Source: Escherichia phage 21
Sequence record: AF017626.1
Reading direction: 5' to 3' (one strand)
Length of the DNA stretch: 2,662 nucleotides
Under the pieces are notes generated by a model. That model had not been told where the DNA came from. It did not search any database and worked only from the letters and a program-made list of their open reading frames with translations. Positions 233 to 268 of this stretch are shown here, piece by piece (within the stretch, counting starts at the first letter, position 1; each line of letters opens with the position of its first letter). A program made the translations under genes and the position numbers.

Positions 233-268
233 TTCCCCAAAACTTTCCCCAAAACCCTTCCCCAAAAC
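233..268 (+). repeat. Three tandem direct repeats of TTCCCCAAAAC (233-243, 245-255, 258-268); candidate arm-type integrase binding sites of the attL P' arm
   Basis: Repeat copies read directly from the sequence, spaced 12 and 13 bp apart. They lie between the icd 3' end and the integrase stop codon, where lambda has its P'1-P'3 arm sites. The functional assignment is inference. Confidence 0.5.

Follow-up and report, generated by a model that had tools for sequence, protein, structure and literature searches.

Three tandem repeats between icd and int as candidate P′-arm integrase sites of a phage-21-type prophage

The window analysed here, a single stretch of 2,662 nucleotides, carries the end of the icd gene with its terminator, a block of three short direct repeats, and an integrase gene (int) split by an insertion sequence. 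The features are listed below, with coordinates in the window.

1–165, + strand: prophage-borne 3′ end of icd, an open reading frame of the last 54 codons plus the stop
189–217, + strand: intrinsic terminator of icd, carried by the phage (hairpin at 189–211 with a 9-bp stem and 5-nt loop, followed by a T-run)
233–243, + strand: candidate arm-type Int site P′1 (TTCCCCAAAAC), the copy nearest the core; the same in phage 21, where it carries an attP subsite annotation, and kept across genera
245–255, + strand: candidate arm-type Int site P′2 (TTCCCCAAAAC), the most variable copy among relatives
258–268, + strand: candidate arm-type Int site P′3 (TTCCCCAAAAC), 10 bp from the int stop codon
279–730, − strand: 3′ part of int, encoding roughly the last 150 codons of a phage-21-type tyrosine integrase (TAG stop at 279–281)
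731–2040: IS3-family insertion sequence of 1310 bp with 25-bp terminal inverted repeats, splitting int
2044–2662, − strand: 5′ part of int, from residue 25 to about residue 230

An exact-match scan of the window placed three TTCCCCAAAAC copies on the + strand, starting at 233, 245 and 258 (start-to-start spacing of 12 and 13 bp), where 0.01 copies would be expected; three exact copies were not reached in any of 200 dinucleotide-preserving shuffles. No further copies with up to two mismatches were found on either strand of the window. The original prediction, which had described three near-perfect 11-bp direct repeats at 12–13 bp spacing, thus holds, and all three copies proved to be exact. Their placement was also as predicted: the block lies between the icd terminator hairpin and the int stop codon, with a 10-bp gap to the latter.

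Matching genomes have the stretch at 1–165 annotated as icd, and the phage 21 record labels it an icd pseudogene. Within attL it makes up the inner portion of the P′ arm, with the core and crossover at or just left of position 1; icd homology in attP-form contigs starts at ...TGCTGCGCC. The phage 21 record annotates a terminator at the same place as the one seen here. Homology to unoccupied icd loci stops at about position 218 (1–218 matches in genomes annotated with icd alone), and the first repeat, at 233, begins 15 bp past the end of this host-homologous DNA. The first 730 bp of the window match about 1,670 complete E. coli genomes, in which icd is followed by a site-specific integrase.

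The insertion sequence that interrupts int, on which the original prediction was silent, is flanked by a 3-bp target duplication (TAT at 728–730 and 2041–2043) and contains two transposase reading frames on the minus strand (1660–1986 and 773–1663). It is annotated in matching records as an IS3 family transposase with a programmed frameshift, and we take it to be IS629/IS1203-like. Removal of the element in silico restored Int residues 25–380 with zero mismatches to the intact 380-residue Int of strain AR_0013; the 5′ part covers most of the region coding for the Arm DNA-binding domain, and the first 24 codons lie outside the window. The intact Int matches PF09003 (Arm-DNA-bind_1) over residues 1–71 with E = 1.7e-28, indicating that the integrase associated with the repeats has an N-terminal domain of the family that binds arm DNA. 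A lambda-type excisionase gene (PF07825) adjoins int. The same insertion is found in six complete genomes, including the ETEC strains TW11681 and 504239. Together, the P′ block and the split int mark this prophage as probably unable to excise by means of its own Int. The arm sites are thus probably idle here, unless a related (21-type) Int is supplied in trans.

Lambdoid phages match the first 730 bp at 95–99%, and phage 21 does so with 97.2% DNA identity over window positions 7–730. From the terminator across the repeats and into int, the window is base for base the same as phage 21: 131 of 135 bases match over window 166–300, the four mismatches all falling before the terminator hairpin. Between phage 21 Int and the intact Int, 376 of 381 positions agree (the stop codon included), and the icd-int-xis order is common to phage 21 and the matching genomes. 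DNA, Int, insertion in icd and the phage-borne icd end all identify the site as the attachment site of phage 21, that is, of the icd-integrating Jouyvirus-type lambdoid phages. In phage 21 attP (OL657228; M61865) the same repeats lie in the same place between the icd′ terminator and the int stop. The window differs in that its site is the attL form in a bacterial chromosome, in that its int is disrupted by the insertion sequence, and in about 3% of bases elsewhere in the 730 bp compared.

The block itself is annotated in the phage 21 record OL657228 (feature 27563–27599) as attP subsites P1P2P3 with the consensus YYTTCCCCAAAA. The three repeats are therefore the already described P′ arm of phage 21 and are not new. 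The original prediction had also raised the possibility of a distinct arm-site specificity. The repeat does differ from the lambda arm consensus, as was claimed; the specificity, however, is that of phage 21, already on record. A full-text literature search for phage 21 arm-type sites and for the motif string returned nothing relevant among the texts searchable in full, and attP is not a topic of the phage 21 genome announcement.

In a 1992 thesis, Schneider is said to have proposed that repeated dodecamers serve phage 21 as arm recognition sites. Wang et al., writing in J Bacteriol in 1997, reportedly delimited a minimal 21 attP of 366–418 bp, which would take in the outermost dodecamers. In our data the outermost phage 21 copies span 398 bp (1364–1761 of the phage 21 attP locus, L002, measured over 12–14-nt units), which fits the range reported for the minimal attP.

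Arm-type sites of the kind predicted should also have a counterpart at the opposite end of the prophage, and one copy was indeed found there, in the P arm. Phage 21 attP has one extra exact TTCCCCAAAA in the same orientation (L002 1367–1376), about 128 bp upstream of icd′. The same copy is present in the attR of ETEC 504239 (L005 3810), a closely related lysogen, about 128 bp upstream of the icd remnant. This strain carries the same IS-disrupted int as the window, and within about 90 kb around its prophage the 10-mer is confined to att positions. The P-arm copy precedes P′1 by 360–362 bp in each of six attP contexts, whose remaining sequence is shared in islands only. One motif is therefore present in both arms, away from the crossover, in three P′ copies and one P copy.

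A position-weight-matrix scan of the six contexts detected only this one copy in the P arm. We also considered an inverted, lambda P2-like candidate, TTTTGGCTAA (L002 1420–1429, two mismatches), as a second P-arm site. It is conserved in the close 21 group only and scored below the matrix threshold in the six contexts, and was rejected.

The phage 21 P arm also contains two islands that resemble the IHF consensus, AATCAAACGGTTG and TATCAGCGAGTTG (L002 1396–1408 and 1463–1475), whose positions are kept across 21-type and e14-type P arms (alignment A2). The other conserved island of the P arm is the core boundary, TA(C/A)TGCTGC. In the P′ arm no IHF consensus was found with up to one mismatch in window 1–300. 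A direct repeat of GTTGA, 11 bp apart (GGTTGAATAAAGTTGATTTT, L002 1404–1419), falls in the interval from the P-arm site to the second IHF-like site. From its position, which is about that of the lambda Xis sites, this repeat may represent the Xis sites of phage 21.

We analysed conservation of the repeats in two sets of loci. The first was a scan of viral contigs for two adjacent motif copies, a condition that in itself presupposes two of the three. The second, which is the unbiased one, was anchored on Int: its loci, from many genera of Enterobacterales, were retrieved by Int protein similarity alone. Of 72 loci in the viral-contig scan, about 50 have icd′, the terminator, three repeats and int in that order, with Int identities of 67–99% and freely varying intergenic flanks. 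About 20 of the 72 matches were unrelated CCCCAAAA-rich arrays, some of them on contigs of giant-virus metagenome-assembled genomes (MAGs), and were discarded. Three IMG/VR loci (L039, L048 and L066, two of them giant-virus MAGs) have longer tandem arrays rich in CCCCAAAA, a motif that resembles ciliate telomeric repeats. No integrase or icd match was found near these three arrays, which are unrelated to the att site.

An alignment of 15 Int-linked P′ arms has 26 invariant columns, of which 24 belong to the three repeats, and a mean column identity of 60%. The arms come from Kosakonia, Mangrovibacter, Trabulsiella, Buttiauxella, Arsenophonus, Proteus, Morganella, Providencia, Pantoea and Superficieibacter. 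Over more than ten genera, the repeats are conserved islands in diverged intergenic DNA, which is the conservation that the original prediction called for. Within P′3, T94 and C95 to A102 are invariant in alignment A1. The middle copy varies most: P′2 reads ACTCCCCAAAAC in ETEC relatives and has the degenerate form CCACCAAAA in Providencia. In the ETEC genomes with the same IS insertion, the middle repeat is ACTCCCCAAAAC and not TTTCCCCAAAAC (L004 19684–19697, attL of 504239), unlike the window, where the middle repeat is as perfect as the other two.

The number of copies among relatives ranges from 2 to 5. In a Providencia phage without icd beside int, the repeats still adjoin the int stop, and three copies adjoin int in two further 21-type loci (L103 and L156). 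In Erwinia phyllosphaerae about 1.07 kb separates the int stop from the three repeats (L104, about 4707–4744), and in Edwardsiella ictaluri (L091) the gap is about 65 nt; P′ sites are thus not always adjacent to int.

Within the Int-anchored set, the signature of the Int N-terminal domain and the adjacent repeat change together. Four pairings of signature and motif were found:

NLYxKLDKR (21-type) with TCCCCAAAA: 21 loci, and 4 more with a degenerate middle copy
NLYPLYSRK (e14-type) with TTATCAAAA: 19 loci
GLSCYTDARTKK with CTGCAAAA: 7 loci
NLFCFxDPRT with CAGTAAAAT: 5 loci

Among loci with both a classified domain and a repeat cluster, a single one (L109) departs from this pattern. Loci without a nearby repeat are mostly e14-type, and in K-12 the int of e14 is not beside attL; the other repeat-less loci either have cargo between int and the repeats or lie at a contig edge. 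The motif is thus conserved with its integrase, in 24 of the 26 invariant columns, and specific to it, in four pairings with one exception. The covariation points to the residues that likely set arm-site specificity. The paired classes also offer a simple assignment of icd-linked prophages, and of tandem arrays of them, to integrase specificity groups.

The exceptional locus, in Providencia alcalifaciens BIGb0506, has an Int with a 21-type N-terminal domain beside e14-type P′ repeats, the sole cross-pairing. The sites concerned, these repeats and a 21-type site at P-arm distance, lie about 45 nt and some 395 nt beyond the end of int. A second int is located 13 kb from the first (L110) and aligns with the query only from residue 29 onward. 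The locus could be a recombinant within a tandem array.

Two further integrase clades, 51–60% identical to the 21-type Int, have their own triple repeat beside the int stop. Repeats of the TCTTCTGCAAAAC / TCCTGCAAAAC kind occur in Xenorhabdus, Providencia, Serratia and Rahnella (L118, L120, L128, L135, L150, L152, L158 and L160), and TCAGTAAAAT repeats in Pectobacterium and Symbiopectobacterium (L115, L127, L131, L143 and L144).

The proposal that the block represents arm-type Int sites of the P′ arm is supported, at the level of sequence, by the copy in the P arm, by conservation, by the PF09003 domain of Int and by the covariation of motif and N-terminal domain. We consider it highly probable that the repeats are the P′1–P′3 arm-type sites bound by the Int of a phage-21-type lambdoid prophage in icd. 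The repeats, their identity with phage 21, their distribution over two arms, their conservation and their covariation with the Int N-terminal domain were all computed directly; from these we infer that Int binds the repeats and that recombination needs them. Three observations were counted against this reading: the P arm has one copy as opposed to two in lambda, the DNA from the core to the P′ sites has no IHF consensus, and one locus shows the cross-pairing described above. For annotation, the block should be recorded as the P′ arm of a phage-21-type attL; labelling it a new element, or a repeat that regulates icd, should be avoided.

Instead of Int, the repeats might bind an accessory protein that controls directionality, either the excisionase Xis or a host factor. 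Indeed, lambda Xis sites are also short tandem direct repeats, and a gene for a lambda-type excisionase lies next to int. Lambda Xis sites are, however, confined to the P arm, where they adjoin an arm-type site. Our repeats lie in the int-proximal P′ arm and their motif recurs in the P arm, a distribution that is typical of Int arm sites and does not match the X1/X1.5/X2 sites of lambda. Furthermore, the class of the motif follows the signature of the Int N-terminal domain. We therefore regard binding by an accessory protein as very unlikely.

Slightly less probable again is that the block acts as nucleic acid on the int strand, as a G-quadruplex or as a 3′-untranslated element for stability or termination of int mRNA. 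The complement of the block is a repeated GTTTTGGGG, which gives four G-runs on the minus strand (GGGG-AA-GGG-TTTT-GGGG-AAAGTTTT-GGGG). The block also falls in the 3′ untranslated region of int, just before the icd terminator hairpin, the palindromic stem of which can form on either strand. One loop of the quadruplex would, however, be 8 nt long, compared with the usual limit of 7 nt. Sister integrase clades, moreover, have A/T-rich motifs without G-runs (TTATCAAAA and CAGTAAAAT) at the same position and spacing, so that the conserved property is a repeated motif of protein-binding size rather than G-richness. Nor does an element of int mRNA give any role to the isolated copy in the other arm, far from int.

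Least probable of all is a functionless product of replication slippage or tandem duplication: although short tandem repeats can arise by slippage and relatives have 2 to 5 copies, a neutral origin is contradicted by repeats that are invariant across genera between diverged flanks, by a separate copy at a fixed distance in the other arm, by covariation with the Int N-terminal domain and by the absence of three exact copies from all 200 shuffles.

Taking the repeats as arm-type Int sites, a mechanism can be proposed by analogy with lambda, where Int contacts arm sites through its N-terminal domain and the core through its C-terminal domains. In this heterobivalent tyrosine integrase, the small N-terminal domain would bind the P′ sites and the one P-arm copy, and the catalytic domains would bind the core inside icd. 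By bridging arm and core, with IHF bending the DNA in the P arm, Int may build the intasome, on which the choice between integration and excision depends. The phage would keep icd intact by carrying the last 165 bp of the gene and its terminator. Since these are carried, the P′ sites are displaced to a place just past the host sequence, about 230 bp away from the core, which results in a long attP.

The site shares with lambda three tandem P′ sites in the int-proximal arm accompanied by P-arm site(s), an Int of the same Arm DNA-binding family (PF09003), a Xis gene beside int and islands of IHF consensus in the P arm. The differences concern the motif and the geometry. The motif is TTCCCCAAAA(C) in the 21-type, in contrast to C/AAGTCACTAT in lambda; one P-arm copy was detected in the 21-type, whereas lambda has two; and icd′ with its terminator, intervening in the 21-type, puts about 230 bp between the core and the P′ sites, as compared with about 50–85 bp in lambda. 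Finally, no H′-like IHF consensus was found in the 21-type P′ arm, unlike that of lambda.

The cryptic prophage e14 of E. coli K-12 targets icd as well, and its attachment site is laid out in the same way. Its icd′ terminator is immediately followed by three tandem copies of TTATCAAAA, spaced 11 and 13 bp, and one P copy lies 127 bp upstream of the icd homology (icdC). The N-terminal domain of its Int reads NLYPLYSRK, as opposed to NLYCKLDKR in the 21-type, and its motif is TTATCAAAA. In K-12, unlike in the window, other genes lie between attL and intE.

What is new in these comparisons is modest: the four classes of motif and N-terminal domain, and the arrangement of one P site with three P′ sites that the 21 and the e14 type have in common. 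As a tentative generalization, which we consider less likely than not, icd-associated lambda-like integrases would have at least four arm specificities (TCCCCAAAA, TTATCAAAA, CTGCAAAA and CAGTAAAAT), each tied to a short N-terminal segment at Int residues ~14–25. For the 21 and e14 types, in which the P arm was examined, this goes with one P and three P′ sites and no detectable P2; the 21-type P′ arm, about 230 bp long, contained no IHF consensus. If true, this would provide a readable recognition code for arm binding, together with an intasome geometry unlike that of lambda.

In the e14 of K-12, the three TTATCAAAA repeats are followed by an inverted CCTACCCCAAAACT with one mismatch to YYTTCCCCAAAA (L006 1486–1499); none of the other e14-type P′ arms listed has an inverted 21-type copy. 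In eleven viral contigs (L015, L024, L029, L030, L040, L049, L061, L064, L069, L078 and L082), an e14-type P arm, with GGTTATCAAAAC at the P1 position, continues by way of the icd core into a 21-type P′ arm. The adjacent 21-type int is kept in most of these contigs, and the P arm of one (L029) is the same as K-12 e14 attR almost base for base. These contigs look like hybrid att junctions from tandem arrays of e14-type and 21-type prophages at icd.
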